Source: Patescibacteria group bacterium (GTDB lineage: Bacteria > Patescibacteriota > Patescibacteriia > JAHIZJ01). Taken from it: DNA of 64,000 bases. The stretch's first letter is position 1; each line of letters opens with the position of its first letter. Below are positions 37,122 to 59,247 of the stretch, piece after piece. The stretch lies in the NCBI GenBank assembly GCA_041650335.1, contig JBAZLK010000002.1:124070-188069 (forward strand). Direction: 5' to 3'. The position numbers were made by a program, and so were the translations under genes. The notes beneath the pieces are model-generated. The model was not told the DNA's origin. It did no database searches and worked only from the letters and a program-made list of their open reading frames with translations.

Positions 37122-37286
37122 GTTGTCGAAAGAACGGGCAATCATTACGGTCTCATACCCCTTTCAGATATGAAAAACCGGCCAATGCCCGTCGCGTTGG
37201 TTCTTGGTAAATAAATAAACGAGCCGTGAAAGCCCACCTCTCTTCACTTACAAAGTGCAAAATCAGTAAGACGCTGCTTATCCACC
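37122..37286 (-). repeat. conserved promoter plus leader element, copy A (upstream of M23 lipoprotein gene)
   Basis: Contains promoter module (rc GGTGGATAAGC ... GAAGAGAGGTGGGCTTTCACGGCTCG) and the ~95-nt leader module (rc CCAACGCGACGGGCATTGGCCGG...GATTGCCCGTTCTTTCGACAAC). Confidence 0.7.
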
Positions 37287-37342
37287 GATGGTCATTTTGA
37301 AGCTATCGCTGTGCTTGCATATTAATCTGTTTGCTCTTCGAA

Positions 37343-37945
37343 TTATTCGTTCACACTAATACTTTCAAGGATCGTGCTATACGTATCACGTACGTTTTCT
37401 AAGTCATCAGCGGTAAAAGTTGAGATTGATCCTGTTGGAGTCGATGGAGCGGTTTGTTCAATGTAGAAATTATACTTATCTCCTTGGTTGTCTTGAAATA
37501 TCGTGCTAATATACACACCAACACCGCTCAGCTTTTCAATACGATAACCTGGTAGTGAATGGAAGGTGATATTTTTAAGCGATGAACGATAGTCATCAGA
37601 TATTATCTGCTCCATATACGATTCTAGACTGGTGGCGTCTCGCGGTATGTTCTTGGTAAGATCATATTCCAGATCTCCAATGGCTGGATGCGTCATGATA
37701 GTAATTTGCCAGCTGGAACCACTAACTGTTTGTGGAACCATATCTGACCCTGTTGGAATACGTAATGTAACATTGTAATCTGTCAAAGTCTTCGTCTCGA
37801 AATCTGCGATGGTATAGTTATTTCTATTATTATTAATAATCGTAGCATTGTCATTTTGATTATTACGACCGTCGAGATAAAGCCACGCACCTACTGTGAT
37901 TGCAGCCATTATTACGACTGACCATAATACAACCTGTTTTTTCAT
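37343..37945 (-). CDS. hypothetical secreted protein (AT-rich)
   Basis: 200 aa with N-terminal signal anchor MKKQVVLWSVVIMAAITVGAWLY. No recognisable domain. Confidence 0.5.
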   Translation of the reverse strand: MKKQVVLWSVVIMAAITVGAWLYLDGRNNQNDNATIINNNRNNYTIADFETKTLTDYNVTLRIPTGSDMVPQTVSGSSWQITIMTHPAIGDLEYDLTKNIPRDATSLESYMEQIISDDYRSSLKNITFHSLPGYRIEKLSGVGVYISTIFQDNQGDKYNFYIEQTAPSTPTGSISTFTADDLENVRDTYSTILESISVNE

Positions 37946-38004
37946 TGTTTTTATAATAATAGTAATTTGTTAGAATAAGGGGAAGTTGGATTCCTCCCCC
38001 TAGT

Positions 38005-38625
38005 TTACCACACATTGTACTGTGAGAGGATATGACCCCACATCGGCAGAACGTGACGAGTAATCCTGTTGGATTCGATGAAATTTGAGTCGATCACATC
38101 CAGTCTTGTCGGATGTCCGACCCCATCCCTTTCCATAACCTGGAAAACGATGGCGGTATGAGGGATTCGTCCACCGGCATTTGATCGTTGAATGACCTGT
38201 CCGGGCCTCACCACGTTGATGCTTCGTGTCGCATAGGCATACCCGCTGGGCAGCGTGACTATCCCACCCGTCGCCCGTGAAACGATGGTGCTCCCAAACG
38301 ACTTACACTGCCCCCCGATGCCGACGCCAAGCCCACGATAATTCCAATCCCCCGCGAACCAGCAACCATCGTTACAGATAATCTCGTCCGAGGCACCCCA
38401 GTCGTTGTTGTTGTAGTGATCTCTCGAGAGAGCGTAGCAGATCTCACGATAGACTGCATACTCCCACTGCTCCGGAAGCTGTGATTGTGGTATTGGGAAA
38501 ATGCCGTTGGGCGGCCATTCCTCCTGTGACTCAGGTGATAACACACCTCCCCTCTTTCCGCAGCCAAGCAATAACCCTCCAGCAATTACCGGCAAGACCT
38601 TCAGAAAATCCCTGCGTGTGTTCAT
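38005..38625 (-). CDS. CHAP-domain-like peptidoglycan amidase/peptidase, Tat-type lipoprotein
   Basis: Start at MNTRRDFLKVLPVIAGGLLLGCG (RR motif plus lipobox). GGAGG SD. Cys/His pair GGQCKSFGSTIV ... PHTAIVFQV resembles the CHAP catalytic dyad. Confidence 0.5.
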   Translation of the reverse strand: MNTRRDFLKVLPVIAGGLLLGCGKRGGVLSPESQEEWPPNGIFPIPQSQLPEQWEYAVYREICYALSRDHYNNNDWGASDEIICNDGCWFAGDWNYRGLGVGIGGQCKSFGSTIVSRATGGIVTLPSGYAYATRSINVVRPGQVIQRSNAGGRIPHTAIVFQVMERDGVGHPTRLDVIDSNFIESNRITRHVLPMWGHILSQYNVW

Positions 38626-38650
38626 CCTCCTCTCCTTTTCTATTGGTAGT

Positions 38651-38752
38651 GTTGTCGAAAGAACGGGCAATCATTACGGTCTCATACCCCTTTCAGATAT
38701 GAAAAACCGGCCAATGCCCGTCGCGTTGGATCTCTTGGTAAAAAAATAAACG
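38651..38752 (-). repeat. conserved leader element, copy B (leader module only; about 25 nt upstream of the CHAP gene start)
   Basis: Near-identical to copies A and C across about 95 nt (gttgtcgaaagaacgggcaatcattacggtctcatacccctttcagatatgaaaaaccggccaatgcccgtcgcgttggatctcttggtaaaaaaataaacga). Confidence 0.7.
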
Positions 38753-38915
38753 AACTGACTTCAGTATAATTTATGGCTCTCGATTATCGACTGATACTAA
38801 TATATGGTTTCTATTGCAGTAATTGCCGTAGAAACCGCGGTCCGATCGCCTTGCTAGCTACCCCATCCGATTGGCCCAGTCTTTTTAGCGGACACACAAC
38901 CACTTCTTCGCTATA

Positions 38916-39557
38916 TTACTTAAGGCTCACCGATTCAGCAATCGTCATCAGCGTTTCTTCAGAAACGTCGTTTGAGATTAGTACCAGTATTTCGTTCGAG
39001 GTAATAAAATACAGGTATTGCCCAACCGCACCGCCAACCCCATTTCCCTGGTGGGTGAGTACAATTGTGTTTAGGCCGACGACGCGCGTTTCGTTTCTGA
39101 CAATAGTTTCACCAGGCATGTTCCGCTCAATCCACGGCGCCAGCCGACCCCATTGGTCAGATGAAATATTTTCATCGTTGGTATAAACTGCCAGGTGCAT
39201 GACGTCGTCCGCAAAGGTATTGAATCCATCGGGCGTATTACGGTTATGCCCCTCACTGGTGTTTTTATTTGTTCGAGAAAAACGAACCAATAAACTCTCT
39301 GTTTTAATTGGCGGCACGACCTGATAAGAAAACTCACTCGGCACGACAAGCGAAAAACCATAGCGAGCACTAATATACGCAGTCGTCTGTCCGGCGCTGT
39401 TTAACGGCCTAAATGCCGGATCGGCTTGCGTTTGACTGAGGCTAATTTGATCGGATGGTTCTGTTTTTGCCCGGCTGACCGCGAAAAGCCAGGCGCCAAG
39501 CACCACTGATAAAACCAGAATGACGGCAAAGGAAATGATGGTTGTTGGTTGTTTCAT
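38916..39557 (-). CDS. hypothetical signal-anchored protein
   Basis: 213 aa, N-terminal TM MKQPTTIISFAVILVLSVVLGAWLFAV. Confidence 0.5.
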   Translation of the reverse strand: MKQPTTIISFAVILVLSVVLGAWLFAVSRAKTEPSDQISLSQTQADPAFRPLNSAGQTTAYISARYGFSLVVPSEFSYQVVPPIKTESLLVRFSRTNKNTSEGHNRNTPDGFNTFADDVMHLAVYTNDENISSDQWGRLAPWIERNMPGETIVRNETRVVGLNTIVLTHQGNGVGGAVGQYLYFITSNEILVLISNDVSEETLMTIAESVSLK

Positions 39558-39639
39558 GGGTTGTATGCTTAATTATAGTTTATTTTATATCGTATCGTCA
39601 GAAAAGGGAAGTCGTTTTCACGGCTTCCAGGTAATCTCA

Positions 39640-40341
39640 CTATCGCCTGACTGGTACATATATCTTCCCCTGCGTAGCCCAGGAAGCCTCAAAGTCACTG
39701 ACCGAAATCTGTCTGTAACAGCCGTACGAGCTTCCCGGATCGTGTAGAATGACGTTTCCGTTCCAGCCAACTGCGAGAACCCAGTGTGCCGTTCCGCCGG
39801 AACTGACGATGCGGCCTTTTTTGATCATGACGCCGCAAATCACGGGATGTCCGTGCGCCACCTCGTTTATCACGTCATTGGCGCGATTGCCATAGTAGAC
39901 GGTGTAATGAAGTCCGTGGAATTCAGTCAGAAGGATGCCCAGGGCGTTTCGTCCGGAGAAGTTAGTGTACCATCCGTTGGGACTGTCGAAACGCGAATCA
40001 TCGAGGCGATCGGCTAAGAACTGATTTTCCGCGGTGATGACCCATGGTTCGACGTAGCCATTGTTAAAGTAGCCGCCCAGCATCACCCCGCAGGCCTGAC
40101 CGCAGTTCTTCGTGTTGTACTGATCGCCGGGCGGGAACTGGCGGAGCCAACGCATGTTGAGATGGAAACAGTAGCCAGGGTAGTCTGCCAGCAAACCGAC
40201 AATCGGTGCCAGTGAGTCCGGCAGCAACTGCTCTCCCGAGTGATCAACGGGTTCGGTTGATACGGCCTGCTCCTGCCCGCACCCCATAATTAACGTAAGG
40301 GGGAGAGCGAGAATAAGGCAGAAAAAACCGGAGCGTTTCAT
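39640..40341 (-). CDS. C39-like (papain-fold) cysteine peptidase domain lipoprotein
   Basis: Start at MKRSGFFCLILALPLTLIMGC (paralogous to the M23 signal peptide). Cys region NCGQACGVMLGGY and His region AHWVLAVGW resemble the Peptidase_C39-like catalytic dyad. Confidence 0.5.
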   Translation of the reverse strand: MKRSGFFCLILALPLTLIMGCGQEQAVSTEPVDHSGEQLLPDSLAPIVGLLADYPGYCFHLNMRWLRQFPPGDQYNTKNCGQACGVMLGGYFNNGYVEPWVITAENQFLADRLDDSRFDSPNGWYTNFSGRNALGILLTEFHGLHYTVYYGNRANDVINEVAHGHPVICGVMIKKGRIVSSGGTAHWVLAVGWNGNVILHDPGSSYGCYRQISVSDFEASWATQGKIYVPVRR

Positions 40342-40462
40342 TGGATTTACCTCCCTGTCGTACCGAACGACAGTGGTTGAGATGATGAGCAATAACACAC
40401 CCTGAAACCGAGACTCAACGCCTCCTTTTCCTCCTTTCTTAATAGAGACAGTAGCGATAGGT

Positions 40463-40638
40463 ATTGTCAAAAGAACGGGCAATCATTACGGTCTCATACC
40501 CCTTTCGGATATGCAAAACCGGCCAATGCCCGTCGCGTTGGATCTCTTGGTAAAAAAATAAACGAGCCGTGAAAGCCCGTCTTCTTTCTGCCTTTAGTAT
40601 GCGCCATCAATAATACCTGTCAATGTAGCTTATCCACC
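40463..40638 (-). repeat. conserved promoter plus leader element, copy C (upstream of C39-like lipoprotein gene)
   Basis: Has both modules. Promoter module rc GGTGGATAAgctacaTTGACA-17 nt-ATACTA then AGAAAGAAGACGGGCTTTCACGGCTCG; leader module as in copies A and B. Confidence 0.7.
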
Positions 40639-40662
40639 GACGGCTTTATGACGCGACGGCTG

Positions 40663-40698
40663 ATAAAAAAACGGACCACATGGTCCGTTTTATTTATT
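40663..40698. terminator. bidirectional rho-independent terminator
   Basis: AAAAAAACGGACCACATGGTCCGTTTTATTTATT. Confidence 0.7.
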
Positions 40699-40709
40699 AC
40701 TGCCTCGAC

Positions 40710-41336
40710 TTATTCGAGTTTTACGCTGTCAAAAATATCGCTCACCGTCTGACTCGCTTTGAGATAGGTAGCCGAGTCGGGATTTGGGTCAAATATTTCG
40801 GCTCGGATCTGCCAGATACCTGTTCCGGTCTGGATATAATAGGTGTGATATGAATCCGTGATCGGATTGCCCTGGAACCAAATCCATTGGCGGATGCCGA
40901 TATTCCCGTCGCGGTCATCCCGGGTACGGACTTTTTCGTTCGCTGTTTCGGATTTCGCATTGATAAAATCAGGCAATGAAAGATTTTCGGCGTTTGGCTC
41001 TTTGCTAATCGCCAGTCTGATAAGCGATTCAGTCACGTCTTGCTTCGAGAGCGGATCAGTGATGGTCGCCTGTTCAGTCGACTCAAGTTCGCCCACCGTC
41101 GTCGAGCCGTTTTCAGCCGAAATCGAAAGAAGCGTCAGATTTTTTGGGTACATGAAGGTAATTCCCTGCGCTTGGAACGTTTCGGTCAGCGGCGGCACTT
41201 CCGTATTTCTGTTTGTTTTCACAGAGCACATCGTGGTGGCGAAGCTCGGCACTGATTGCAAGCCATACATCACCGCCGCACCCCCGGTGAGCGCCGCCAG
41301 TAGAAAAATGACAAAGTACCAAAAATTTTTACGCAT
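40710..41336 (-). CDS. hypothetical secreted protein
   Basis: 208 aa with signal anchor MRKNFWYFVIFLLAALTGGAAVMYG. Confidence 0.5.
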   Translation of the reverse strand: MRKNFWYFVIFLLAALTGGAAVMYGLQSVPSFATTMCSVKTNRNTEVPPLTETFQAQGITFMYPKNLTLLSISAENGSTTVGELESTEQATITDPLSKQDVTESLIRLAISKEPNAENLSLPDFINAKSETANEKVRTRDDRDGNIGIRQWIWFQGNPITDSYHTYYIQTGTGIWQIRAEIFDPNPDSATYLKASQTVSDIFDSVKLE

Positions 41337-41466
41337 ACATAGCTATTTTAATGCCAAATGGTCAATATTCCCATATATTTGCGCTCCTGACGAACGGCAT
41401 GGGCGGCTTTTCGTGCTTGATAATAGTATACTACACTTATAATTTTTTTCATATGATATTTTCCCA

Positions 41467-41499
41467 GCAATAAAACGGGCACGAACTTGCGTTCGCGCC
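41467..41499 (-). terminator. rho-independent terminator after the 913-aa gene
   Basis: Minus sense GGGCGCGAACGCAAGTTCGTGCCC then GTTTTATTG. Confidence 0.55.
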
Positions 41500-41528
41500 C
41501 AGAGGACGTTTGTGCGATGTTTGTTTTC

Positions 41529-44270: not shown

Positions 44271-44405
44271 GACCGGTTACCTCCTTCCGCATTGCGGATA
44301 CAAACATGTCAATGTGCTAACACCCTCTCAATTTCGAGAGGCCTTTCACTACCTGCTAACAGGCGGCGAAAGCGCTCTCGAAATGAAAATGTGTCGTTTC
44401 GCTTC

Positions 44406-45800: not shown

Positions 45801-48572
45801 TTATTCTACCGGCAGAGTAAATATAAACGTGCTCCCCTTGCCCAAACCTTCGCTCTCGACCCAGATCTGTCCGCCGTGGGCGTCGACGATGCGCTTGGCA
45901 ATATAGAGACCGAGACCGGACCCGTCCGGCTGGACTTGGGCGATGCCCTCCCCGCGGACAAACTTCGTGAACAGCCGCTTGGCGTCATCCGGCGGGATAC
46001 CGCGGCCCGTGTCCTTCACGGAAACGCTGATATTGCCGTTGATCTTCTGAACCGAAACCGTGACGCTGCCCTGCGGTGTGTATTTTATCGCGTTATCGAC
46101 GAGATTCAAAATGACGTCTTTCAATTTATCCGAATCAACCATCAGGGCGGGCAGTTTTTTGGCCGGCTTTTTGTATTCCAGCTTGAGGCCTTTTTCCTCA
46201 GCCACCTTGATGATTTCGATCAATTCGGTCTGGATCAGTTCTTCGATTTGCGCCGGTTTCTTATCGAGTACGAATTTACCCGCCTCGATCTTCGTAATAT
46301 TGAGGAATAAATTTACCATCCGGACCATGCGCTTGCTCGCATCCAGCACTTGTTTCAAAATATTCAGTTTTTCTTCGTCAATCTTTCCGAAATCGCCGTC
46401 CACCAGCATGGACAGCCAGCCCTGGATGCCGGTCAGCGGGGTGCGCAATTGGTGCGAGGCGATGGAGATAAACTCGTTCTTCGCCTCGTCGAGCTGTTTC
46501 AAATGATCGTTCGCCTTGGCCAGCTCGGTATTCGTCAGCCGTAGCTCCTCGACCAACTTCAGATTCCTAGTGACAATACCCATCTGATCGGCCAGCGACT
46601 CCATCATCTGGATCTCGTCCTCAGATACTTCTTTCTTGGATTTTTGGATGACAAACACGATCGATCCGATGATCTCCTTTTCCGAGAAAATCGGCGCGGC
46701 CACGATCGTCTTCGCGCCCACGAGCTTTTGCATAGCATAGCAGATCGGCTTTGGAATCGGCGGGGACAGGAAATCAGATAGCGATTCGCTGATCTGGATA
46801 TTTCCCGTGCGGATTGCCTCCGTCGCCAGATCCTTATCCGCCATCGTGCCGCTGTATTGTTCGAGCTGTTTGGGCAGGAGTTTGACCGCGGCTTGAGTGA
46901 TTTTTGTCATCGTGATGGCCACCGGATGCGTTTTTTCACCTTCTCCGCGTAAAATAATAACCCCCCCGATGTACCCCAGCTCATTGGCGATGCCGTCAAC
47001 GATCGCCTGGGTAACCTTCTTGAAGTCGAGCGACCGAGTGATGATATTGCCGATACTCTGGAGAGCGTTCAAGTAGACATTCCGGTTCTTTAGCTCCACG
47101 TTGGCCATCTGAAGATCGGCCGTGGCGTGCTCGACCTCAACCTTCAGCTTTTCACTGAATGATTTTACCTCGTCATAGAGCCGCGACTTCTCGATCGCCG
47201 ACCCCATGAGCGGGCTCAAGACTTCGAGCAGTTTCAGGTCGTTTCCGCTATAGACATCGCCGGATCGCTTCTGGCCCAGCACATAGAGGCCAGTCACCTC
47301 GCCCTCGAGCATGATCGGCGCGATCACTGCCGCGCCCGTGGCTTTTACCTCAGCTAGTGATTTCTCGAGCTGTTTGCGCTCGCGTTCATCGGCCGTATCG
47401 GAGATTTTTCGCTCAAGCTCTTCGAGGACAACCACTTTTTCGGTTTTTTGAACGTATTTGGCGACCGAGCCATTCGCATCGACGCGCGTATTATTACCGT
47501 TACCGTTGTTATTTCTACGCTTGCTGTATGACTGTTTGTTTTTCGTGAGCAATAATATGTCCGCATATTTGATTTTCAGAATACTGGCGAGCTTCCACTC
47601 CACTGACGACAGCAGATCATCGAGCTCGATCTTCACACTGACCATTTCGGTCAGTATCTGGGTGGCTTCGGTATAGTCCACCTCGCCTTTGAAGAATATT
47701 GCATCGGTAATTTTTGCCAGTAAACGCTTCAACGGATCAAAACCGAAAACTATTACAAGCGAGACAAGGATAGTCGCGAGAAACCCCGACCCGCCAAGCT
47801 CTTGGATAAAAAGACCGGTCAGAAACGTAGCTGAAGTGAAAGCAAACGTAGTAAAAAGAATGAGAAAGAAATAGATAATGGAGCGAGATATAACCACCCT
47901 AATATCAAACAATCTGTGTTTGACGATTGCATAGGCGGTAATAATCGCATAAATGAAAACAAAATAATTACCAACAGGATAAATATTTAATCTAAAATCT
48001 AGTAAAAAATTTGTAGATCCACCAACAAATCCAATCAATGACGCGACAAACATGTATAATAACTGTTGTGATCTGAGACCAAGAGCTTTTTTATATTCAA
48101 TATATATATTTCTGATACTCCAAAAAACGACTGCAACAAAATATATAAGAAATGTTGGGTATATGCTTCCAGTTTTTACCGGCCAATAGCCAAAATATGT
48201 CCTGGGACTCACTTGCTCGATAAACAATTTAGAAAAAACGAGAATCGAAAATATTACCGAAATGACATACAAAAAAATAGTAATATACAAGTATTTCTTT
48301 TTTGTCCTGCCGGTTAATACAACGCTATAACGAAAAAATACGGCGGGTAATAACGCAGTACCAATATACAACAACCTTTGCCAAATCAATGCCTGATCAG
48401 AGTTATTAGCAATGACGGTACCGAATAAACCTATAGTCCATATTGAAGTTACACAACTGACAAGAAACCATATTTGATTTAATTCTTTCTTCCTATTTCC
48501 AAATAAAACAAACAGTCCTAGTGCAACAGTTAATATCGCGGTTAAAAGACAGGTATACGCAAAAGTGTTCAT
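45801..48572 (-). CDS. sensor histidine kinase with N-terminal 7TM sensor module and GAF domains
   Basis: 923 aa. The first ~300 aa are multi-TM. H-box FISIASHQLRTPLTGIQGWLSML, N/G boxes (NLVDNAIKYT, DTGRGI, GSGLGLYI). Confidence 0.8.
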   Translation of the reverse strand: MNTFAYTCLLTAILTVALGLFVLFGNRKKELNQIWFLVSCVTSIWTIGLFGTVIANNSDQALIWQRLLYIGTALLPAVFFRYSVVLTGRTKKKYLYITIFLYVISVIFSILVFSKLFIEQVSPRTYFGYWPVKTGSIYPTFLIYFVAVVFWSIRNIYIEYKKALGLRSQQLLYMFVASLIGFVGGSTNFLLDFRLNIYPVGNYFVFIYAIITAYAIVKHRLFDIRVVISRSIIYFFLILFTTFAFTSATFLTGLFIQELGGSGFLATILVSLVIVFGFDPLKRLLAKITDAIFFKGEVDYTEATQILTEMVSVKIELDDLLSSVEWKLASILKIKYADILLLTKNKQSYSKRRNNNGNGNNTRVDANGSVAKYVQKTEKVVVLEELERKISDTADERERKQLEKSLAEVKATGAAVIAPIMLEGEVTGLYVLGQKRSGDVYSGNDLKLLEVLSPLMGSAIEKSRLYDEVKSFSEKLKVEVEHATADLQMANVELKNRNVYLNALQSIGNIITRSLDFKKVTQAIVDGIANELGYIGGVIILRGEGEKTHPVAITMTKITQAAVKLLPKQLEQYSGTMADKDLATEAIRTGNIQISESLSDFLSPPIPKPICYAMQKLVGAKTIVAAPIFSEKEIIGSIVFVIQKSKKEVSEDEIQMMESLADQMGIVTRNLKLVEELRLTNTELAKANDHLKQLDEAKNEFISIASHQLRTPLTGIQGWLSMLVDGDFGKIDEEKLNILKQVLDASKRMVRMVNLFLNITKIEAGKFVLDKKPAQIEELIQTELIEIIKVAEEKGLKLEYKKPAKKLPALMVDSDKLKDVILNLVDNAIKYTPQGSVTVSVQKINGNISVSVKDTGRGIPPDDAKRLFTKFVRGEGIAQVQPDGSGLGLYIAKRIVDAHGGQIWVESEGLGKGSTFIFTLPVE

Positions 48573-50640: not shown

Positions 50641-51324
50641 CTACTTCTTCAATACTATCACTGCAATCATAACCGCCACGACACCGGCAAATAGCGGAGA
50701 ATATGCCATGTTAATTGATAAATCAAAAAGGGGGAAGATGCGATCCATAACCACGCCAACTAAACCGCTAATACCAATTATTATAGTAACGGCGGTTACC
50801 TGTTTTTTTAGTTGCACCGAGACAATGTTTATTTTTTTTATTAACAAATATAGTGATAACAACAAATATATCAACGATACTATGAAGAGCGCCCAGAACG
50901 CATTACCTGGTTTAATATCGATAAATCCTTCATTTACATTAACATCATTAATGAAGCTTGGCTGTAATATTATTGCTGGCAAGACAATAAATATTGATCC
51001 AAATATTACCAATCGGCGAACAAGAGGATCCATATTTGTCGGCAACGGATAATACATTGCCAATGCAAGGAGACTTACGAAACTGGCCGTACCAGAGTAG
51101 AATGCTGCCCTGGCAATAATCAACTTTGACATTTCTGTATTCGAAGTCATGAGAAGTCCAACAAAGAAGGACATTAGTGAAAAACCAAAAAGCATAGCGC
51201 AGAGCGCATAGATAGACTGAGTTTTTTGATATCGAAAATAAATATACAATGCGAGAATCAATTCTAATATGGAAAGAGACCAAAGAATTATTGTATTTGC
51301 TTCAGTAATGATACTCATTTTCAT
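50641..51324 (-). CDS. hypothetical polytopic membrane protein
   Basis: 227 aa, about 6-7 TM, AT-rich. Confidence 0.45.
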   Translation of the reverse strand: MKMSIITEANTIILWSLSILELILALYIYFRYQKTQSIYALCAMLFGFSLMSFFVGLLMTSNTEMSKLIIARAAFYSGTASFVSLLALAMYYPLPTNMDPLVRRLVIFGSIFIVLPAIILQPSFINDVNVNEGFIDIKPGNAFWALFIVSLIYLLLSLYLLIKKINIVSVQLKKQVTAVTIIIGISGLVGVVMDRIFPLFDLSINMAYSPLFAGVVAVMIAVIVLKK

Positions 51325-52048: not shown

Positions 52049-53509
52049 TTAAACTTTTACCCCAATCCGCTCAAGCGCGTTTTTATAAAGTATCACATTT
52101 TCTAATGCATAGGCCGCCTCCTGCGCGACATTCTGTAAATATCTGACGTCTTCTGTTGTATACGGTTCGTTCGATGTCTTACTGCCAAGAAGAACAAGCG
52201 CAGAAAGTCCGTGGCGCGTAGCTAGCGGCAATACCGCTTCGGTTTTCAGATTGTCCATTTCCTTTTCGCACTGCTCGAGCCGTCGCTGTTCAAGACCGAA
52301 TGCTTCCTGAAATAGATACGGGATTTCTTCACGGATTAGCATTTTCATGGAATCTTTCAAAAAACTCGGTAATGCTTCTTCTGCGCGAATACTGATATTG
52401 CCGTCTAATGAGTCATATGTTCCCTGGCGCTTGTTTACTATTAAACAAGTTATTCGATTCACGTTCACAACCTTTAATATTTCACCCGATAGCTCTCGGC
52501 AAAACTCTTCCAAGTCCACTAAACCGATCACGCGCTGCCGAACATCTTCAATCATCTGTTTCATATTCGGCTGGCGCGAAAAAAACAAACGGTTAATTAT
52601 TCGTATCAACCATTTACGAAATGGGATAAAGGTTACGGCAATAACAAGCACTGAAGCAAAATTCACAAATGCACGGTTGAATGCGTACTTCTGGACTAAA
52701 TAATCATTCGCAAGCAGAACTAAATAACCATAGACGATTAGTAATAATATAAGAACCAGCGTATGGGCCGCGCCCTTTTTCATTACTATCCTTACGTCCA
52801 TAAAACGATACCGTAGTATGGCATACGCAATAAGCCACGTAAACACAGCTAAACCAATCAAACTTAGAGGATATAATTTATTGTAACCAAGCGATGGCAG
52901 TAGTAAATTAAATAGTAAAGAAAATGTCGCAACGCAAATAAACGCAAAGATAATATAACGTAGTTGAATCTTTGTAACTTTTGATGTAGTTGATTTGAAA
53001 ATATTGAATAATTTTTTCAATCCAAAAAATGCATATATTAATAAATAAATAATATATGCAGGATACAATTGACTAATACTCGGACGATAACCGTAATTTT
53101 CAATATATTCGACATCAGAGATGTTATACCTTGTCGGAACTATTGCTACAATGGCTATGGATGGTAAAAAAAGTAGCAAAATTTGCCACCACGAAAATGG
53201 CGTCTTTTTTTTATAGAGAGTATACGCAAAAAGTAAAAATAATGTCGGGGAAAACGCCGGTCCGAGAAAAGTCAGTCTCGCCCATAAAAGAGCGGCTTCT
53301 TTGCCACCAACAAGATCGGACATAATGTTCGCAAACAACCACACAGAGAGACTTAGCACTAACGATCCAAAGAAGATCAGATTTGGTCTTTTTTTGCTCT
53401 TAATAAATACGGTAATGGATATTACCAGGAGCGCAAAAAAACAAATTACTGAGGTAACTTCAATAATTTGGATCTCTAGACTATGATATATTCCAGGATT
53501 AATCTCCAT
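52049..53509 (-). CDS. membrane sensor with N-terminal 7TM module and C-terminal GAF-like domain (no kinase domain)
   Basis: The first ~300 aa are multi-TM and resemble the N-terminus of the 45801..48572 kinase. The C-terminus is GAF-like (ALVLLGSKTSNEPYTTEDVRYLQNVAQEAAYALENVILY). Confidence 0.5.
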   Translation of the reverse strand: MEINPGIYHSLEIQIIEVTSVICFFALLVISITVFIKSKKRPNLIFFGSLVLSLSVWLFANIMSDLVGGKEAALLWARLTFLGPAFSPTLFLLFAYTLYKKKTPFSWWQILLLFLPSIAIVAIVPTRYNISDVEYIENYGYRPSISQLYPAYIIYLLIYAFFGLKKLFNIFKSTTSKVTKIQLRYIIFAFICVATFSLLFNLLLPSLGYNKLYPLSLIGLAVFTWLIAYAILRYRFMDVRIVMKKGAAHTLVLILLLIVYGYLVLLANDYLVQKYAFNRAFVNFASVLVIAVTFIPFRKWLIRIINRLFFSRQPNMKQMIEDVRQRVIGLVDLEEFCRELSGEILKVVNVNRITCLIVNKRQGTYDSLDGNISIRAEEALPSFLKDSMKMLIREEIPYLFQEAFGLEQRRLEQCEKEMDNLKTEAVLPLATRHGLSALVLLGSKTSNEPYTTEDVRYLQNVAQEAAYALENVILYKNALERIGVKV

Positions 53510-53617
53510 GGTGTTTGTCTTATGTGTTATACAGAATCATACCAAAATCAGCGAAAAAGTCAAATTCTTTAGTTAATTACAAAACCGGGGACAACCCCGG
53601 TTTTGTACATTATCCGC

Positions 53618-54154
53618 TTATTGTACTTTTTCAATCTCATTGGTTAATTTGGTCTTCGCATATTCCGTGCCAGCCTCGTCGCGAAAGATATTACCCGGCA
53701 GTGCAGTGAAAATCGCCTGCATCGTTGAAAGCGGGGTGTATGCCTGTAAATCATCGCGATAATACAGATAGAGCAGGCGCTCATCGCCGGGTTTGAGGTT
53801 CTGTCCGCCTTGGGTGTCGGCGATGACGACGAGATTTCCATTTTCACCCCCAAGAATTGACACAATAAGTTTTTTCGACGCAGTTCCCTTCCAGACTTCC
53901 TGCGGCTCCACCTGCCAATCCGTGTAAATCATTTTCTCTCCCGTATCTTTCTCGAAGACTTCCCGGACATTGCTCGAGATGAATCGGCCGGTAAGAACAA
54001 TCTGTGATTCTTTTGCCAGATCGGCTGGCGTAAGTGTCACCTCTAACTTGCTAACACTTGTGGTAGGTTTATCGCCGCGCAGTGCGATTATCGCAATGAG
54101 ACTTCCGATAATAAACACGCCGGCCAAACCAATGATGATTGTTCGCTTTTTCAT
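53618..54154 (-). CDS. hypothetical secreted protein
   Basis: 178 aa, signal anchor MKKRTIIIGLAGVFIIGSLIAIIAL. Confidence 0.45.
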   Translation of the reverse strand: MKKRTIIIGLAGVFIIGSLIAIIALRGDKPTTSVSKLEVTLTPADLAKESQIVLTGRFISSNVREVFEKDTGEKMIYTDWQVEPQEVWKGTASKKLIVSILGGENGNLVVIADTQGGQNLKPGDERLLYLYYRDDLQAYTPLSTMQAIFTALPGNIFRDEAGTEYAKTKLTNEIEKVQ

Positions 54155-54172
54155 ATTTTTTTACATAAAGTA

Positions 54173-54736
54173 TTAGATGCCATATATTGCCCTGATGCCG
54201 GAAATATCATCCGAATGCAACGTGCGCTTATATGTCTCACCGGGTGCCCCGCTTCCATACATTGTTTTCCAATAATCTCCGCCGCTGTACAGATCATTGA
54301 GCATAAGCCAGTGTCCAAATTCATGCGCCATGACATTTTCAACGTCATATTTGTTCGGGTCCCCGTTCACGTCCCAAGAAAAGCGCGAGTTTATGTATGT
54401 ATCACGATCAGTGATGCGATTATTGTTCCATCCTTCTCGCACATACGTTATGGCAAGTGCATGTGGGTCAGACAAATACTGGAGACGCACTTCATGCCCT
54501 TGCGAGCCAGCAATAAACCGATACTTTGCGCCCGCCTGATTCCACGATGACATAGCGTGGGATATGGCCGGTACCCAGGCGGGCAGGATACTACTGTGCA
54601 TGTAGACCGATACCCGGGTCGGATTGCCATAGTCCCAGTGATGGCCGGAATTGTAGTAGGCTTGGGCGTTAGGCGCACTAATGCCGGCCATAGCCGCAAC
54701 AAAGAACGCGACTAATGCTAAAAACTTTTTTCTCAT
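54173..54736 (-). CDS. secreted zinc metalloprotease (HExxH)
   Basis: Start at MRKKFLALVAFFVAAMAGISAPNAQA (signal peptide). Motif VMAHEFGHWLMLND. Confidence 0.55.
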   Translation of the reverse strand: MRKKFLALVAFFVAAMAGISAPNAQAYYNSGHHWDYGNPTRVSVYMHSSILPAWVPAISHAMSSWNQAGAKYRFIAGSQGHEVRLQYLSDPHALAITYVREGWNNNRITDRDTYINSRFSWDVNGDPNKYDVENVMAHEFGHWLMLNDLYSGGDYWKTMYGSGAPGETYKRTLHSDDISGIRAIYGI

Positions 54737-54806
54737 CTTGTACCCTTTTCCACCCGTCATATTAATTATAGCTATGTCAATGGATAATTGGAAATAAAGC
54801 AAAAAA

Positions 54807-54882
54807 CGAGCCCGAAAGCCCGTCTCTTTCTAACACTAGAATACTCTCTACGTATATTATGTCAACTACCTGTTATCCACCC
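54807..54882 (-). repeat. conserved promoter element, copy D (upstream of secreted metalloprotease gene)
   Basis: rc GGGTGGATAAcaggtagTTGACA-16 nt-TATTCT-agtgtt-AGAAAGAGACGGGCTTTCGGGCTCG. Confidence 0.65.
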
Positions 54883-55520
54883 GCCCCCGCAACTTGATAT
54901 AATGCTTCCAACTCTACTTTTGTCCACCGGATACCGTACACAGCTCGAAATATTCGTGGAAATATTTCGGGTGAATTTGTCTGGCCAAGCTTTCGCAGCA
55001 ACGTAAGCATTTTTTTCTCGCCGTATTTCCGGATCAGCGCGTTGACCCAGAAATACCCGACCGGATATGCCATGACAGAGAAGTTACCCATGGGTCTTGT
55101 TACTGAGAGCGCCAGCGCCAATGGCGGCGTGCGTTTTTTCTGACCAGCCAACCAGCAAGCCAAGCCTTCGTTCAGCCATTTCGGCACATTCCAACCCGCA
55201 ACACTGCGGATGTACAGATGCGCGTGTTCGTGGCGCAGGGTGGTCCAGAATTCAGATCGGCGCCTATGGTTTGACTCGCTGACGTATTTTTCCGGGCTCA
55301 GAATATAAATTACCCGTTCTCTCGTCCAGCCGACTGACCAATCCTCAGTTTTTCTTCCCCAAAGAGCGTCGATCTGACGTCGCGAGGTGAGAAGAACGAC
55401 CAACGGTTCAGAAAGCTTGTATCCGAAGAAACGGTCAAGTTCTTTCGTTTGCATTTTTATCTGGCGTCGCAGTTTCGGCAGTTGGCGAACCCGACTTATT
55501 TCCACACATAGGTTTTTCAT
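54873..55520 (-). CDS. hypothetical protein with HExxH motif (putative metal-dependent hydrolase)
   Basis: TTLRHEHAHLYIRS; 215 aa. Confidence 0.35.
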   Translation of the reverse strand: MKNLCVEISRVRQLPKLRRQIKMQTKELDRFFGYKLSEPLVVLLTSRRQIDALWGRKTEDWSVGWTRERVIYILSPEKYVSESNHRRRSEFWTTLRHEHAHLYIRSVAGWNVPKWLNEGLACWLAGQKKRTPPLALALSVTRPMGNFSVMAYPVGYFWVNALIRKYGEKKMLTLLRKLGQTNSPEIFPRIFRAVYGIRWTKVELEALYQVAGAGG

Positions 55521-55534
55521 TGTATCGTTTTTTA

Positions 55535-56122
55535 CTATTTCTCAACCTTATGAGCGATCATTCTGACCACATGATGCTGATGGGGTTCTTCCTTGCCTGG
55601 GTGTCCCGGATCGTCAATCACCGCTTCGCGATAAAAATCAACATCAAAATCGGAAAACAGATCGCGTAGCTGCCCTTTTTGGAAATAACAGGCGTCCGGT
55701 CGTTTTTGATAGGACGGCTCATCAACCGTGAAACCAGATACAATGATATACCCGCCTGGATGGAGGGCGTTTTTTACTCGCTGGATTAAGTCGAGCGCTT
55801 TTGGTTTTTCTATAAACTGGAGGACATTGAAAAGCTGGATTATGGAGTATCGATCAGGCTCTATCTCGAAATCCTCTGCCCGACCCTGGATGATTTTGAT
55901 CGGCAGTTTGTTAAAGTCAGGTGTTTTTTTCATTTCAGCAATTTCGTCTGGCGACCTTTCCACCGCCACAACGCGCCAGCCGTTTTGCGCCATGAACAAA
56001 CTGTCACGCCCTTGACCGGCGCCAAAATCAAGGAAGGAATGTGCACGATCAGCGTTTTGCCAAATCCTCTGCAATAATTTGTTGGGCATACTGATTGGGT
56101 TTTGTGTAATCGACACGGGCAT
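55535..56122 (-). CDS. class I SAM-dependent methyltransferase (TehB-like)
   Basis: LDFGAGQGRDSLFMAQNGWRVVAVERSPDEI (motif I and post-I). Confidence 0.65.
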   Translation of the reverse strand: MPVSITQNPISMPNKLLQRIWQNADRAHSFLDFGAGQGRDSLFMAQNGWRVVAVERSPDEIAEMKKTPDFNKLPIKIIQGRAEDFEIEPDRYSIIQLFNVLQFIEKPKALDLIQRVKNALHPGGYIIVSGFTVDEPSYQKRPDACYFQKGQLRDLFSDFDVDFYREAVIDDPGHPGKEEPHQHHVVRMIAHKVEK

Positions 56123-56445
56123 AATTCGTTAGATAATAGCAATATATAGTATAAATATGGAAGCGCCTTCGTACAAATATACGAACGTCATCTATTGGCT
56201 CATGCACAGCGATAAAAACTTTTTCTTGATTGTCGCGTTTAATTCCTTGCTAAGTTCGCGTTGAAACGCTAGTTCAACTGGTTCAGACGTTTGTATATGT
56301 CCTCCCGGTAAAAAATTTGAATCAGCTCCGCGTATATACAATTACCAATAATTTTTTTATGAATCATTCCTCCTGGACTACCAGCAACCTCGCATCACGT
56401 ACAGATTTATTAGCTATAATATTTTGATATTAGTGAGGCGTTTTA

Positions 56446-56865
56446 TCATGATCTTAAATGTTTTATTACGGTTCTCTTGTATCCACTCTCCATCTTAAGC
56501 ATCCTTACTCCAGCTGCAGTCACCCAACGCCATTTGTCATGTTCCTCACTCAGATAGAATCGGCTCTTCGATATCCGGCATTCAAAAACCACAACGCAAA
56601 AATGATACCTGGCAATATCATGGAATTTCGTCATGATATTAAACACTGATATTGGTCGGCCAATTTCTACCCGGGTAATTCCAAGTTCCTCTTTTAATTC
56701 TCGGCACAGGACCGCCTGCGGCGTTTCTCCAAATTCCATCTTTCCTCCGGGCAATTCCCAGGAACCGCCGGGCGTATGTACAAATAATACTTTATTATCG
56801 CGTAGGATCAACGCTTTTATTGTAATGCGTAATCGCCGTTCCATTTTTGGATAGTAACCCTTCAT
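56446..56865 (-). CDS. NUDIX hydrolase
   Basis: Nudix box GGKMEFGETPQAVLCRELKEELGI. Confidence 0.6.
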   Translation of the reverse strand: MKGYYPKMERRLRITIKALILRDNKVLFVHTPGGSWELPGGKMEFGETPQAVLCRELKEELGITRVEIGRPISVFNIMTKFHDIARYHFCVVVFECRISKSRFYLSEEHDKWRWVTAAGVRMLKMESGYKRTVIKHLRS

Positions 56866-57437
56866 AACTTTTTATTATTCAATTTATCAATAAACATTGC
56901 GAATGTATTTTCTTTAAGAGAAATATGACGGCCGTACCATCGTTCCACTAATCCACTGAATTCTATTATTCGAGTAAACCCGGAATTTCGGTCGTGGTTT
57001 ATCTGCTTTCGATACCACGACTTACCTTCTGTCTCGCTGATATGAATAGCATTTAAACAACGGACAAAGTATTCCTCAAGATTGTCACGGAATGTTTGCC
57101 CTCGATAGTTATCGGGAAGTCCAATTTCACATTCCTGGACAAAATGACTGACCGACATTTTTGTCTTTATCAGTGAATGCAGGGCTTCGTGTCGCACGGT
57201 ATTCCAGGGGAAGCTATGATCTGGGTGGGGATGTAAACGAATAATATGTTTTACTCCGTCATGTGATACTCGACCGTTCCCCAAGGGCAGATGCTCGTCA
57301 ATTTTTATTTCCAAAATCAACGAACAATCATCTTCGTTCCACCGTAATAGGTCAACTGCCTCAAGGACGGTTGATCTGCACTTCTCCATAAACCCATCTA
57401 TTTTCGATAATTTTTTGGCTAGTTTAATATCGATCAT
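56862..57437 (-). CDS. hypothetical HExxH protein (putative metallopeptidase) downstream of the radical SAM gene
   Basis: RHEALHSLI motif; 191 aa; AT-rich compared with the flanking rSAM gene. Confidence 0.4.
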   Translation of the reverse strand: MIDIKLAKKLSKIDGFMEKCRSTVLEAVDLLRWNEDDCSLILEIKIDEHLPLGNGRVSHDGVKHIIRLHPHPDHSFPWNTVRHEALHSLIKTKMSVSHFVQECEIGLPDNYRGQTFRDNLEEYFVRCLNAIHISETEGKSWYRKQINHDRNSGFTRIIEFSGLVERWYGRHISLKENTFAMFIDKLNNKKL

Positions 57438-57516
57438 TATTTTCTAGATTACGCCACAAGGTGCAAAAAGTAAAATCCCTTCGATCTCGGCATCAAAGGG
57501 GTATAGCAACATCCAG

Positions 57517-58785
57517 TCACTTGATTGGCTCCGGTGGAAGACCGAGCTCCATCCGGAGAATTGCCCGAGTGAAAAAGCGTATCCCCTCACAACGGTGGCT
57601 AACCCGCCTAGCGAAACCAGCCCCGTACGCCGACGCTCGCACATGGCAACAGTCGCCTTTGCAATTGCTCATGGCATAACAGTCATGACATTGGGGCACC
57701 GAATCCGCTGTATAGCCGGCCAATTGTTGATACGATTTCCCGGATATTTCGGGACCCGTGCCATGGGGCGTTATTTTGCCATAATGGAAGCATGCCGCTA
57801 GCGGATCGCGGGAATCGCTGACTCGCGTACAGGCCGTTACGTTGCCCTCCGGATCGATGCCGAAGATTCTGCCGTTGACCCCGCAGAAGCTGAGCCGGCA
57901 TACGTGCGACTTGAAGGTTGCCAATGAGGAACGCAGCTGCAAGTTATTTGCTTTCGCAATCGCCAGCAAGCCTACATACTGCTGAGCAAACACTCGAAGA
58001 TCCGGCGGTTGCGCATTGGTGTCGATGCACCTTCCGGTATACTCCAGCGGCTCGATGCCGATGACCACATTCGGCCAGCGACGGTGCAAAAACAGCACAT
58101 TGTCTTCGAGATCGTTGACGCTCTCTGCCGAAACAGTCATCCGAAAGCCTATACCGATGGTACCAACACCACTTAGCGCGTCGATGTTGGCCGCCACGAT
58201 ATTGAACGACGGTCGTCCGTCGGCCAGCGGCCTCTGTTTGTTCTGTATCATCGGAGGTCCGTCGATTGAGATCGAGATGTTCGTGAAGTTGTCAACGATG
58301 AAGCGCCGAAGCTTGGAGGAAAAGCAGCCGTTGCTGACAATGGCGAGTTTGCACCGGAGCCCCGTTTCGGACTCCTTCTGCCTGCAGTAGGCCACGATTT
58401 TACGCACCAGCCTCAAAGACAACAGCGGTTCCCCGCCGCCGGTCAGCGTAACGTCGAAGTGTGATAGCCCCAACTCTTTCGCATCTTTGGCCACCTGGTC
58501 GATAGCCTGGCAGGCTATGGGAAATGGCATTTCCCGTCGCTGTTGCGTACCGGAATTCGCGTGGCAGTAAATGCAGCGCAAATTACAGAAGTTGTTGAGC
58601 ACCAGATCACAACGGGGAAACCTCCCGTCCGGCGCGCGTTCAGTGGAATGCGTCTCAACTGTTGCGTCAAACAGGTCGGGTACTTGGATGCTCTGCGGAA
58701 CAAGCCGGACCGTGCGAAGCTGGGGAATGTACACGATCTTGTTCCCGCTTTCAACCGGAATCTGAAAAGCGCGAACCGCAGTCAT
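57517..58785 (-). CDS. radical SAM / SPASM-domain peptide-modifying enzyme
   Basis: CNLRCIYCH (CxxxCxxC). C-terminal Cys cluster CHDCYAMSNCKGDCCH fits the SPASM Cx2Cx5Cx3C pattern, plus additional upstream Cys. GGAGG SD. Confidence 0.8.
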   Translation of the reverse strand: MTAVRAFQIPVESGNKIVYIPQLRTVRLVPQSIQVPDLFDATVETHSTERAPDGRFPRCDLVLNNFCNLRCIYCHANSGTQQRREMPFPIACQAIDQVAKDAKELGLSHFDVTLTGGGEPLLSLRLVRKIVAYCRQKESETGLRCKLAIVSNGCFSSKLRRFIVDNFTNISISIDGPPMIQNKQRPLADGRPSFNIVAANIDALSGVGTIGIGFRMTVSAESVNDLEDNVLFLHRRWPNVVIGIEPLEYTGRCIDTNAQPPDLRVFAQQYVGLLAIAKANNLQLRSSLATFKSHVCRLSFCGVNGRIFGIDPEGNVTACTRVSDSRDPLAACFHYGKITPHGTGPEISGKSYQQLAGYTADSVPQCHDCYAMSNCKGDCCHVRASAYGAGFARRVSHRCEGIRFFTRAILRMELGLPPEPIK

Positions 58786-58812
58786 TGGTCACCTCCTGAG
58801 AAAGGATTGAGT

Positions 58813-58836
58813 GGGGCCGGCGGTGAAACCGGCCCC
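58813..58836 (-). promoter_or_regulatory. intergenic hairpin between precursor peptide and radical SAM gene (putative attenuator/partial terminator)
   Basis: GGGGCCGGcggtgaaaCCGGCCCC, perfect 8-bp GC stem, 30 nt after the peptide stop. Confidence 0.5.
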
Positions 58837-58853
58837 CTACCGCGTTGACTCGA

Positions 58854-59018
58854 TCAGTCGCTCGAGCAGATGTAGTCGTCGCAGCAGTTGTCGCAGCAGG
58901 CTTGCCCGTTCTGCGAATATTGCCGATCGCTCAGCGTTGCTTCTCGCACGCTGACCTGATCCAGCTCCGACAGCGTCGCAATTGAACGGGTTTCCGTGCC
59001 ATGGCTCGACGCATTCAT
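58854..59018 (-). CDS. candidate RiPP precursor peptide (54 aa, Cys/Asp-rich C-terminus), absent from the ORF track
   Basis: MNASSHGTETRSIATLSELDQVSVREATLSDRQYSQNGQACCDNCCDDYICSSD. SD GGAGAGGAGGG lies 8 nt before ATG. Directly upstream of the rSAM/SPASM gene. Confidence 0.55.
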   Translation of the reverse strand: MNASSHGTETRSIATLSELDQVSVREATLSDRQYSQNGQACCDNCCDDYICSSD

Positions 59019-59178
59019 TTAGCTACCCTCCTCTCCGCCCATAGGAGTCAGGTTGATTAGCCAGAGGTTCCGGCATTCGGAATGTGGCAAAACCGCCAGA
59101 GACCGATGGGTCTTTTGTTGTAAAAGATCGATAACACAAAAAGAGCCGGTTTTTCTGCCTGCCTTCGGAAGGCAAGAA

Positions 59179-59247
59179 AGAAAGCCCGTCTCTTTCTGCC
59201 TGCATGATACACCATCTAGAGAACCGGTCAAGATCGTTTTATCCACT
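59179..59247 (-). repeat. conserved promoter element, copy E (upstream of the precursor peptide)
   Basis: rc GTGGATAAaacgatcTTGACC-16 nt-TATCAT-gcaggc-AGAAAGAGACGGGCTTTC. Confidence 0.65.

Follow-up and report, generated by a model that had tools for sequence, protein, structure and literature searches.

Members of the Candidate Phyla Radiation (CPR), or Patescibacteria, have tiny genomes with few recognisable regulators, and many of them live attached to host cells; to our knowledge, almost nothing has been established about how their genes are regulated. In the ribonucleic antiterminator (RAT) systems of BglG, SacY and LicT, and in ANTAR systems, a protein stabilises a small hairpin that overlaps the 5' arm of a leader terminator, so that the two folds exclude each other. 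RAT is an imperfect hairpin of 29 nt, and ANTAR requires two hairpins with hexaloops. In the dfn and mln antibiotic operons of Bacillus velezensis, the targets of the NusG paralogue LoaP, a small conserved leader hairpin is combined with an intrinsic terminator to switch the operon on, and the hairpin is near-identical in each target operon (PMC12691694). Here we compare with these systems a family of promoter and leader elements, called cassettes below, in a 64,000-nt stretch (the window) of contig JBAZLK010000002.1 from a Patescibacteria group bacterium (assembly GCA_041650335.1, positions 124,070 to 188,069). Five copies, A to E, stand upstream of genes for secreted hydrolases and for a Cys-rich precursor peptide (the arsenal genes), and all the genes treated here are on the minus strand. 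The signal specific to this gene set is most likely an attenuator or antiterminator acting at the RNA level and not the DNA box upstream of the promoter, since the conserved block is the 5' arm of a terminator-like hairpin and such a unit recurs in the 105-nt leader.

A sequence-only reading of this DNA had proposed the five copies. All five are present on the minus strand, far beyond what chance would give. The transcribed block GAAAGAGACGGGCTTTC occurs three times at no more than 3 mismatches (0.30 expected), the upstream box plus TTGAC three times in 21 kb of locus L001 (0.01 expected), and the box core GTGGATAA five times in 64 kb, four of these being in the copies, against a chance expectation of 1.9. 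Only the extent of copy E differs: it starts at 59247 as proposed, but ends at 59135 and not at 59179. Three further copies, F, G and H, lie on the same contig just past the window end. The 105-nt leader itself is a direct repeat in three copies (A, B and C), with 86-96% identity.

The same reading described a conserved initial transcribed sequence containing a small hairpin. The conserved block and the small hairpin are both there; what was missed is that the block is also half of a terminator-like hairpin. The 18-nt sequence AGAAAGAGACGGGCTTTC forms the 5' arm of a hairpin that resembles an intrinsic terminator, followed by a U tract and located at the predicted transcription start, at about +8 to +35. 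A terminator scan flags copies A, C and D, with the arrangement AGACGGGC-loop-GCUCGUUU and then 8-9 U or T in ten, and the folds of C, D and E have energies of -10.5 to -32 kcal/mol (z -2.7 to -4.2). The partner of the 5' arm in E and H is CCGGCUCU, with an inserted hairpin between the two and UUUUG after them. In E, F, G and H and in the related loci L152, L129, L007, L025 and L138, stem energies lie between -10 and -42 kcal/mol, and 6-8 of the 10 nt that follow are U. All instances have 4-9 U within 10 nt past the stem, the tract being weaker (4-5 U) in the second unit of A to C. The elements thus have the G+C-rich stem, short loop and U tract of intrinsic terminators, termination itself being a prediction. 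Hairpins followed by U tracts are also used as gene-end terminators by the same genome (40691-40668, 59316-59294 and 41501-41476).

In A, B and C the unit recurs as the 105-nt leader, which reads GACGGGCA ... UGCCCGUU, with a 47-nt hairpin inserted in the loop, and then CUUUCGACAAC. F and G have a short version of the unit (GAGACGGGC-AUUGUU-GCUCGUUUUUUU), and in the CHAP leader of L129 and the three cassettes of L152 the 5' arm of module 1 is joined directly to the 3' arm of module 2, CCCGUUCUUUUU. There is therefore one type of unit, consisting of an A/G-rich 5' flank, GACGGGC, a free loop, GCYCGU and a U-rich tail, which occurs once or twice between promoter and gene. A second unit stands before the ribosome-binding site in A, B, C, F and G, that of F behind a decayed first unit.

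Two other identities for the unit were considered and rejected. The copies and 18 related loci were searched against Rfam, at the gathering threshold and at E<=10; no family reached the threshold, and the best E-values (0.18-10) belong to unrelated families. As there is no relevant match, and as the hairpins inserted in the loops differ completely between genomes, the unit is not a known RNA family or riboswitch. Nor is it a repeat like a DNA uptake sequence: in 64 kb there are 16 instances of GACGGGC, where 9.1 are expected, and six of the 16 are in the elements, so that it is not a genome-wide repeat.

The small GAAAG/CTTTC hairpin of the sequence-only reading now has the support of covariation. 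The flanks of every GACGGG can close a small hairpin with the loop (A)AGACGGG and a stem of 4-7 bp. The stem is GAAAG/CUUUC in first units, AACGAUG/CAUUGUU in F and G, CGAAG/CUUCG in L129, AACG/CGUU in L138 and L007 and, with one mismatch, CCAACG/CAUUGG in the second units of A, B and C. When these are aligned, 94% of cells are paired, and three of the five pairs change on both sides in a compensatory manner. The covariation score is 0.40 against 0.17 in shuffles, none of 500 shuffles reaching 0.40, and slid controls, in which the partner is moved by 1-3 columns, are only 24-60% paired. A closing stem of at least 5 bp is present at only 3.5% of 513 unrelated GACGGG sites. Since the AGACGGG loop is also the 5' arm of the terminator-like hairpin, the two folds are mutually exclusive, which is the arrangement that characterises an antiterminator RNA. 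The conservation of CUUUC, which lies inside the terminator loop, is explained by its place in the small-hairpin stem. On its own the small hairpin is worth -1.4 to -5.2 kcal/mol, as against -13 to -28 for the terminator fold, and it would therefore need help to win.

Relatives of the cassette were found by one scan of a genome collection, one metagenome scan and a homologue search with the M23 gene. The metagenome scan used the pattern AGAAAG-N1-2-GACGGGCTTTC, and among the matches listed, which are mostly chance soil sequences, only L129 and L138 are real. The idea that the element travels with genes for secreted hydrolases and modified peptides holds in six related genomes. The full cassette is found in CAYJKP01 (L020 and L021), in Patescibacteria STA_36 (L007 and L025), in L129, in L138 and in L152 (GCA_016294925.1, three cassettes). 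CAYJKP01 (L006, L020 and L021) shares synteny with the Patescibacteria contig and encodes a C39-like protein with 83% identity to that of gene G; its deposit label, "uncultured Gammaproteobacteria bacterium", therefore looks wrong. The 18-nt 5' arm is identical in L020, L007, L025, L129 and L138, and has one inserted A in L152, L021 and copy C. The 3' arm varies (GCUCGUUU, CCGGCUCUUUUU, CCUGGACUCUUU or CCCGUUCUUUUU), the loops range from 4 to more than 50 nt, and the promoter spacers differ; the M23 orthologues of cassette-bearing genomes are themselves only 45-54% identical. More distant M23 homologues (L150, L153 and L154, with 46-48% identity) have no cassette, and the element is thus confined to one clade. 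An invariant 5' arm and loop, a free 3' arm and inserts, a constant U tract and covarying stems make up the pattern of attenuation switches.

The promoter described by the sequence-only reading, of sigma70 type with an upstream box, is also borne out. A promoter scan independently calls C, D and E, each with a score of 10/12 and a 16-nt spacer in the sigma70-type test, and F, H, L152, L129 and STA_36 are similar. The geometry of the cassette is constant: a -35, 16 nt, a -10 and then 6-7 nt to AGAAAG (10 nt in F). Transcription is accordingly predicted, in nearly all copies, to start at AGAAAG, 6-7 nt past the -10. In A and C the scan finds no promoter-like site between unit 1 and the gene, so that transcription from the cassette promoter must read through two tandem terminator-like hairpins.

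We propose that control is exerted in two layers. The first would be the sigma70-type promoter with a DnaA-box-like element before the -35, a layer common to CPR bacteria. The second would be specific to the arsenal genes. The transcript would open with AGAAAGA(A)GACGGGCUUUC, which would first fold as the weak small hairpin and then be captured as the 5' arm of the stabler terminator hairpin, so that by default RNA polymerase would terminate in the leader and the genes would be off. A trans-acting factor, most likely an RNA-binding protein, would recognise the AGACGGG loop and either stabilise the small hairpin or ride with the polymerase. The terminator arm would then be blocked, and the polymerase would read through into the radical-SAM peptide operon and into the hydrolase genes with their partners, all of which would be switched on together. 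The best model we can offer, which we adopt tentatively, is attenuation in the leader, with relief by a factor that recognises the AGACGGG hairpin.

Several points weigh against this model. The sequence shows the anatomy of the cassette, the mutual exclusion of its folds, its conservation across genomes and its association with these genes; from it we infer the start site, termination and read-through, and with them the dependence on a factor and its identity. A Pfam screen of about 60 proteins, from about 75 kb of this genome and from related loci, revealed no candidate antiterminator (CAT/PRD, ANTAR, or NusG paralogue/KOW). Copy D has a second promoter-like site 3' of its hairpin, so the hairpin may there simply terminate the upstream gene. 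The small stem in the second unit of A, B and C contains a C-A mismatch, and the alignment of small hairpins, in which the frame was set manually and surplus loop bases were removed, has few rows, which are partly related. Finally, in D, C and A the 3' arm begins only 1-3 nt past the small hairpin, which would leave very little time for a factor to bind.

The main rival to factor-dependent attenuation is a constitutive 5' hairpin with no dedicated factor, which would either protect the mRNA from 5'-end-dependent decay or act as a fixed partial terminator that insulates or tunes the gene. Such stabilising hairpins occur on the mRNAs of secreted proteases, for example aprE of B. subtilis. The stem begins 2-5 nt from the predicted 5' end, as this explanation would have it, and the inspected DNA yielded no regulator gene. 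Copies D, A, F and H also have no other terminator between the upstream gene and the cassette, so that the hairpin would end the upstream transcript as well. However, a constitutive hairpin needs structure only, and this leaves over the 18/18-nt identity of the 5' arm in front of proteins that are about 50% identical. The conservation of CUUUC within the terminator loop would be unaccounted for too, as would the AGACGGG loop, with its covarying stems, in second units far from the 5' end. We consider the constitutive hairpin unlikely.

A further possibility is processive antitermination by Nus factors, of the kind that makes the polymerase resistant to termination on rRNA operons and at phage lambda nut sites, with the small hairpin as boxB and, as a boxA bound by NusB/NusE, the linear tail GUUCUUU(N)(N)ACAA that follows the second hairpin (window 37122-37136, 38651-38665 and 40463-40477; L003 7668-7681 and 9164-9177). 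The tail is kept in A, B, C, F, G and the L129 CHAP leader, with the variant GAUCUUUUACAAC in E (59117-59129), and tandem terminators would favour a processive mechanism. Its sequence, GUUCUUUCGACAA, fits the gamma-proteobacterial boxA GYTCTTTAANA (PMC5725501) in the first 7 nt (GUUCUUU, 7/7), but the last four positions mismatch unless a 1-nt gap is allowed (7/11), and this consensus may not be that of the present lineage. That the boxA consensus drifts between phyla and that boxA is also used outside rRNA (PMC5725501; PMC7665894) counts in favour of a Nus mechanism; that boxA complexes counter mainly Rho and not intrinsic terminators (PMC7665894) counts against it. The tail is, moreover, missing from D, H, L152, L007 and L138, and we regard the Nus mechanism as improbable.

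Each promoter with its terminator could also be a tiny gene for a trans-acting small RNA (sRNA) of 30-65 nt, all of them having a common 5' sequence. Every copy is a complete promoter with a terminator immediately after it, and the A/G-rich 5' stretch and U tail at the 3' end recall sRNAs of the Hfq type. Against this, the shared sequence is hidden within a stem, and in A and C the downstream gene has no promoter-like site but that of the cassette. In B and G, the unit belongs to an mRNA leader with a different promoter ahead of it, and in six genomes the element keeps its place immediately before genes of one class, so there is only a slender chance that the cassettes are sRNA genes. We also give very little credence to a DNA operator, in which GAAAG-N7-CTTTC and its relatives would be the inverted-repeat sites of a dimeric repressor at +2 to +18 and the RNA folds would be incidental. 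An inverted repeat just past the -10 is in a frequent position for a repressor, but the expected pattern is reversed: it is the spacer (the loop) that is conserved and the half-sites (the stems) that vary, with compensation, which makes an operator unlikely. The arms of the long hairpin, besides, are separated by anything from 4 to more than 50 nt, and second units lie 50-100 nt away from the promoter.

Within genomes the copies are alike over more than the leader. In L152 the repeat is 290 nt long and extends 86 nt into the open reading frames (ORFs; 9797-10086, 11851-12140 and 13268-13557), and in the window genes A and C share their first 39 residues, the repeat reaching the signal-peptide codons (36932-37022 against 40257-40347). 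Since the hydrolases whose signal-peptide codons it enters are otherwise unrelated, the promoter, the leader and the signal peptide evolve as one 5' block, and we read the likeness as concerted evolution of this cassette and not as a mobile element. That the copies are fragments of a mobile element, or a recent repeat without function, is hardly credible in spite of their likeness (86-96% in the window, 87-99% in L152): no terminal inverted repeats or target duplications of the kind that mark miniature inverted-repeat transposable elements were seen, the repeat enters coding sequence, the blocks are conserved while the spacers differ, and the same positions are filled in syntenic loci of other genomes.

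The box upstream of the promoter tells a different story from the leader. The sequence-only reading took GGTGGATAA for the site of one dedicated factor controlling the arsenal, and this must be abandoned, as tRNA promoters and promoters throughout the CPR carry the box. A perfect TGTGGATAA is found at the same position before a tRNA operon of the same genome, the four-tRNA operon on this contig that is headed by aaTGTGGATAAatcaaTTGACG-N17-TATAAA, and in L129 and L152 the arrangement likewise precedes tRNA genes. In general the box has the form (T/G/A)GTGGATAA, 4-9 nt ahead of the -35, the window copies reading (G/A)GTGGATAA; its forms include TGTGGATAAC and GGTGGATAAG. The arrangement TGTGGATAAC-N4-9-TTGAC also occurs at promoters of unrelated genes in about ten other CPR lineages. 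The genome scan gave 27 loci, at least 15 of them from CPR and ten of these from outside the cassette clade (Saccharibacteria, Nealsonbacteria, Berkelbacteria and others); by our rough estimate, CPR genomes are a few percent of the collection. The flanks of GTGGATAA also differ: at CPR promoters 12/13 have T before it and 12/13 have C after it, as against 6/12 and 1/12 in non-CPR sequences. The genes behind CPR boxes are varied (mraZ, a LysM-M23 protein, an ABC permease, an oxidoreductase, small proteins). The opposite extreme, a box in every promoter, is ruled out as well: there are only 7-8 boxes in about 75 kb, and the housekeeping genes of the window have none, so that the box is the signal of a class of promoters. 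From this distribution it appears to be a general promoter signal in CPR bacteria. We found no description in the literature of a promoter motif of CPR, or of this box in CPR.

The four-tRNA operon (L003 4139-4463, about 7 kb past the window end) includes a tRNA with anticodon UCA, called SeC by ARAGORN, and a tRNA-Thr with anticodon AGU. TGA terminates 16 of the 53 long ORFs of the window; the genome therefore uses TGA as a stop despite this UGA-reading tRNA.

The 9-mer TGTGGATAA is equal to TTATCCACA, the DnaA-box consensus of E. coli, T. thermophilus and T. tengcongensis (PMC1888806); the consensus comes from other bacteria, and binding of DnaA here is putative. The DnaA-box 9-mer TTATNCACA is matched at 8/9 positions in A, C, D, E, F and H, the first T being replaced by G or A, and at 9/9 in the tRNA promoters of this genome and of L129, at window 13159-13167 and in 12/13 other CPR promoters. 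The L152 variant TGTTGATAA fits TTATCNACA. Unlike DnaA-regulated promoters, each cassette has a single box, on a fixed side of the -35 and at a fixed distance from it, with no cluster. A resemblance to the binding sites of MraZ was also considered, as both the box and the MraZ repeat contain GTGGAT. MraZ binds three GTGG[A/T]G repeats with a 10-nt period, whereas the cassettes carry a single GTGGAT. The triple repeat is found only in the mraZ promoter of Berkelbacteria (L024, about 7126-7040, minus strand), where TGTGGATAAC lies ahead of the -35 and GTGGATaaaaGTGGGGaaaaGTAGTA, with the three repeats at a 10-nt period, lies past the -10.

The perfect box within the window, TGTGGATAAG, is in the 800-nt intergenic region between MurJ and DUF4012 (13159-13390). 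It is followed, on the plus strand, by a hairpin and terminator at about 13199-13262, shared with a convergent ORF for a hydrophobic peptide of 39 aa (minus strand, 13384-13265). The site could encode a pair consisting of a small RNA and a small membrane peptide.

Taken jointly, the two layers would amount to a clade-specific antitermination regulon, in which a factor reading the AGACGGG-loop hairpin releases an attack kit of M23, CHAP and C39-like lipoprotein hydrolases with their partners, a metalloprotease and a radical-SAM modified peptide, combined with a CPR-wide TGTGGATAAC element through which DnaA, or a factor of the same specificity, acts as a global regulator. This joint reading is possible, though we find it doubtful. 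If it is true, a DnaA-type box would link the promoters of tRNA, division (mraZ) and arsenal genes to replication or to the nucleotide status that depends on the host; and if it is DnaA that reads the box, an ancient replication protein would be a main transcription switch of these reduced bacteria. The cassette itself offers a concrete and testable regulatory code, made up of an 18-nt RNA element and a 9-10-nt DNA element. It marks a modified peptide as well as the genes likeliest to serve in attacking or remodelling the cell wall of a neighbour. As a search key, the 18-nt element could reveal arsenals in other genomes, and it could be bait for the regulator.

The individual copies differ in detail. 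In copy A, the box GGTGGATAA was located by sequence search at 37286-37278. The poor -35 noted in the sequence-only reading (TTACTG, 37269-37264) is indeed degenerate, and there is no good -10 either. Its diverged small hairpin (GUGAAG/AGAGGUGGG/CUUUCAC, 37247-37226, from folding) overlaps terminator-like hairpin 1 with its U tract (37239-37209, from the terminator scan and folding), and its second unit (37122-37200) consists of a small hairpin (37200-37182), a long hairpin (37193-37133) and the tail. Copy B was described as a leader module with a promoter of its own, and this is what is found: TCGATA-16-TATACT at 38790-38763 is called by the promoter scan, while the box is missing and unit 1 lacks its 5' arm, being reduced to the remnant TTCGTTTATTTTTTT at 38754-38740. 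Its second unit (38651-38729) has a small hairpin (38729-38711), a long hairpin (38722-38662) and the tail GUUCUUUCGACAAC.

In copy C, sequence search places the box GGTGGATAA at 40630-40638, 6 nt ahead of the -35, and the promoter scan calls TTGACA-16-CATACT at 40596-40623. The small hairpin, a putative antiterminator (GAAAG, loop AAGACGGG, CUUUC; 40571-40588), starts at about +2 of the predicted transcript, and terminator-like hairpin 1 (AGACGGGC..GCUCGUUU and a U tract, by terminator scan and folding) covers 40552-40582. The second unit (40463-40541) has the small hairpin CCAACG/CGACGGG/CAUUGG (40541-40523), a long hairpin, GACGGGCA...UGCCCGUU, found by folding at 40534-40474, and the tail GUUCUUUUGACAAU.

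In copy D, the box GGTGGATAA (54873-54881) overlaps the upstream Peptidase_MA_2 gene (54873-55520), whose stop codon is the TAA of the box. The scan calls TTGACA-16-TATTCT at 54838-54865, and the small hairpin GAAAG/AGACGGG/CUUUC (54830-54814) overlaps the terminator-like hairpin (12 pairs and U6, 54828-54801, by terminator scan and folding). The second promoter-like site, TTTCCA-18-TATAAT at 54765-54794, is a possible bypass promoter for gene D. In copy E, the box AGTGGATAA (59247-59239, sequence search) precedes TTGACC-16-TATCAT (59231-59204, promoter scan), and the small hairpin AGAAAG/AGACGGG/CUUUCU (59197-59179) lies inside a 65-nt terminator-like hairpin (59135-59199, -32 kcal/mol, z -4.2) that ends in CUCUUUUUGUG.

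Past the window end, copy F has a box, a promoter, a decayed first unit and a short second unit, and precedes an M23 gene; copy G is a second unit only, behind another promoter, and precedes a C39_2 gene. Copy H, GGTGAATAA-N6-TTGACG-N16-TATTAT-N6-AGAAAGAGACGGGC with an E-type hairpin, is an exception in that it precedes an operon of HD, thymidylate-kinase-like, glycosyltransferase, HD, APH and nucleotidyltransferase genes.

The other targets, across genomes, are M23, CHAP-like and C39-like lipoproteins, an M10-like secreted protease, and the precursor with its radical SAM enzyme. M23 genes follow A and F and the cassettes of L007 and L152; CHAP-like genes follow B and those of L129 (with a Pfam CHAP match), L025 and L152; C39_2 genes follow C and G and that of L020; the Cys-rich precursor and radical SAM enzyme follow E and the cassettes of L020 and L129; and the M10-like gene follows D. 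In the window, Pfam assigns gene A (36360-37016) as an M23 metallopeptidase lipoprotein, gene C (39640-40341) as a lipoprotein with a Peptidase_C39_2 domain, and gene D (54173-54739) as a secreted HExxH metalloprotease like Peptidase_M10/M7. Gene B (38005-38625), a CHAP-like lipoprotein with a Tat signal, has no Pfam match of its own and is homologous to the L129 protein that matches CHAP. The copy E operon (57517-59018) encodes a 54-aa Cys-rich precursor (59018-58854) and a radical SAM enzyme (58785-57517). The radical SAM gene is separated from the gene that comes after it in the operon by a terminator-like hairpin of 9 pairs, followed by AUUUUACUUU (57477-57500); this hairpin would be an internal stop, of the kind that a processive antiterminator would need to pass.

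Each hydrolase gene is followed by a gene for a protein of about 200 residues with one N-terminal membrane helix (37343-37945, 200 aa; 38916-39557, 213 aa; 40710-41336; 53618-54154, 178 aa; and L001 1496-2083 and 3015-3665). These partner proteins have a mutual identity of 14-24%, and their relatives give faint PsbP_2 matches. A search of 5.8 billion proteins found as sole homologue a paralogue in the same genome. The partner proteins may be immunity or chaperone partners of the hydrolases. Sensor-type membrane proteins with a HisKA_7TM domain adjoin the clusters in several genomes (window 52049-53509, 50641-51324 and 45801-48572; L150; L152); most of them have no kinase domain, consisting of the 7TM part and a GAF-like tail, and no response regulator was noted in their vicinity.

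The DNA of the window is chromosomal, with genes for LepA, MurJ, PGK, enolase, iPGM, RecJ and RNase P RNA, and a metagenome contig of 368 kb (ERZ27247363 k141_2554607) includes an identical stretch. At NCBI its proteins carry locus tags of the WC497_ series. The RNase P RNA (21454-22015) is of class A (176 bits), and its length of 562 nt, against 367 nt for the model, reflects three large insertions.

It remains to set the cassette beside the systems with which we began. Like the LoaP targets, it has a small conserved RNA hairpin and a predicted leader terminator in the 5' leaders of genes for secreted or antagonistic products. The LoaP hairpin, however, has a UNCG tetraloop and lies well upstream of the terminator without overlapping it, and loaP adjoins its target, whereas in the cassette the loop is AGACGGG, part of the small hairpin belongs to the terminator arm as well, and no NusG paralogue turned up in the vicinity. 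In the overlap of a small hairpin with the 5' arm of the terminator, and in the mutual exclusion of the two folds, the cassette is like RAT and ANTAR. It differs from them in having one loop of 7-8 nt, no relevant Rfam match at E<=10 and, in the inspected DNA, no CAT-PRD or ANTAR protein. With lambda nut and the boxB-boxA elements of rRNA operons it shares a small hairpin near the 5' end and a U-rich element resembling boxA ahead of terminators (PMC5725501, PMC7665894), but the boxA match is partial and absent from several copies, and no N-like protein is known. We therefore rate the cassette as similar in kind to known leader-attenuation control, and its AGACGGG-loop variant, which has no counterpart in Rfam, as new.

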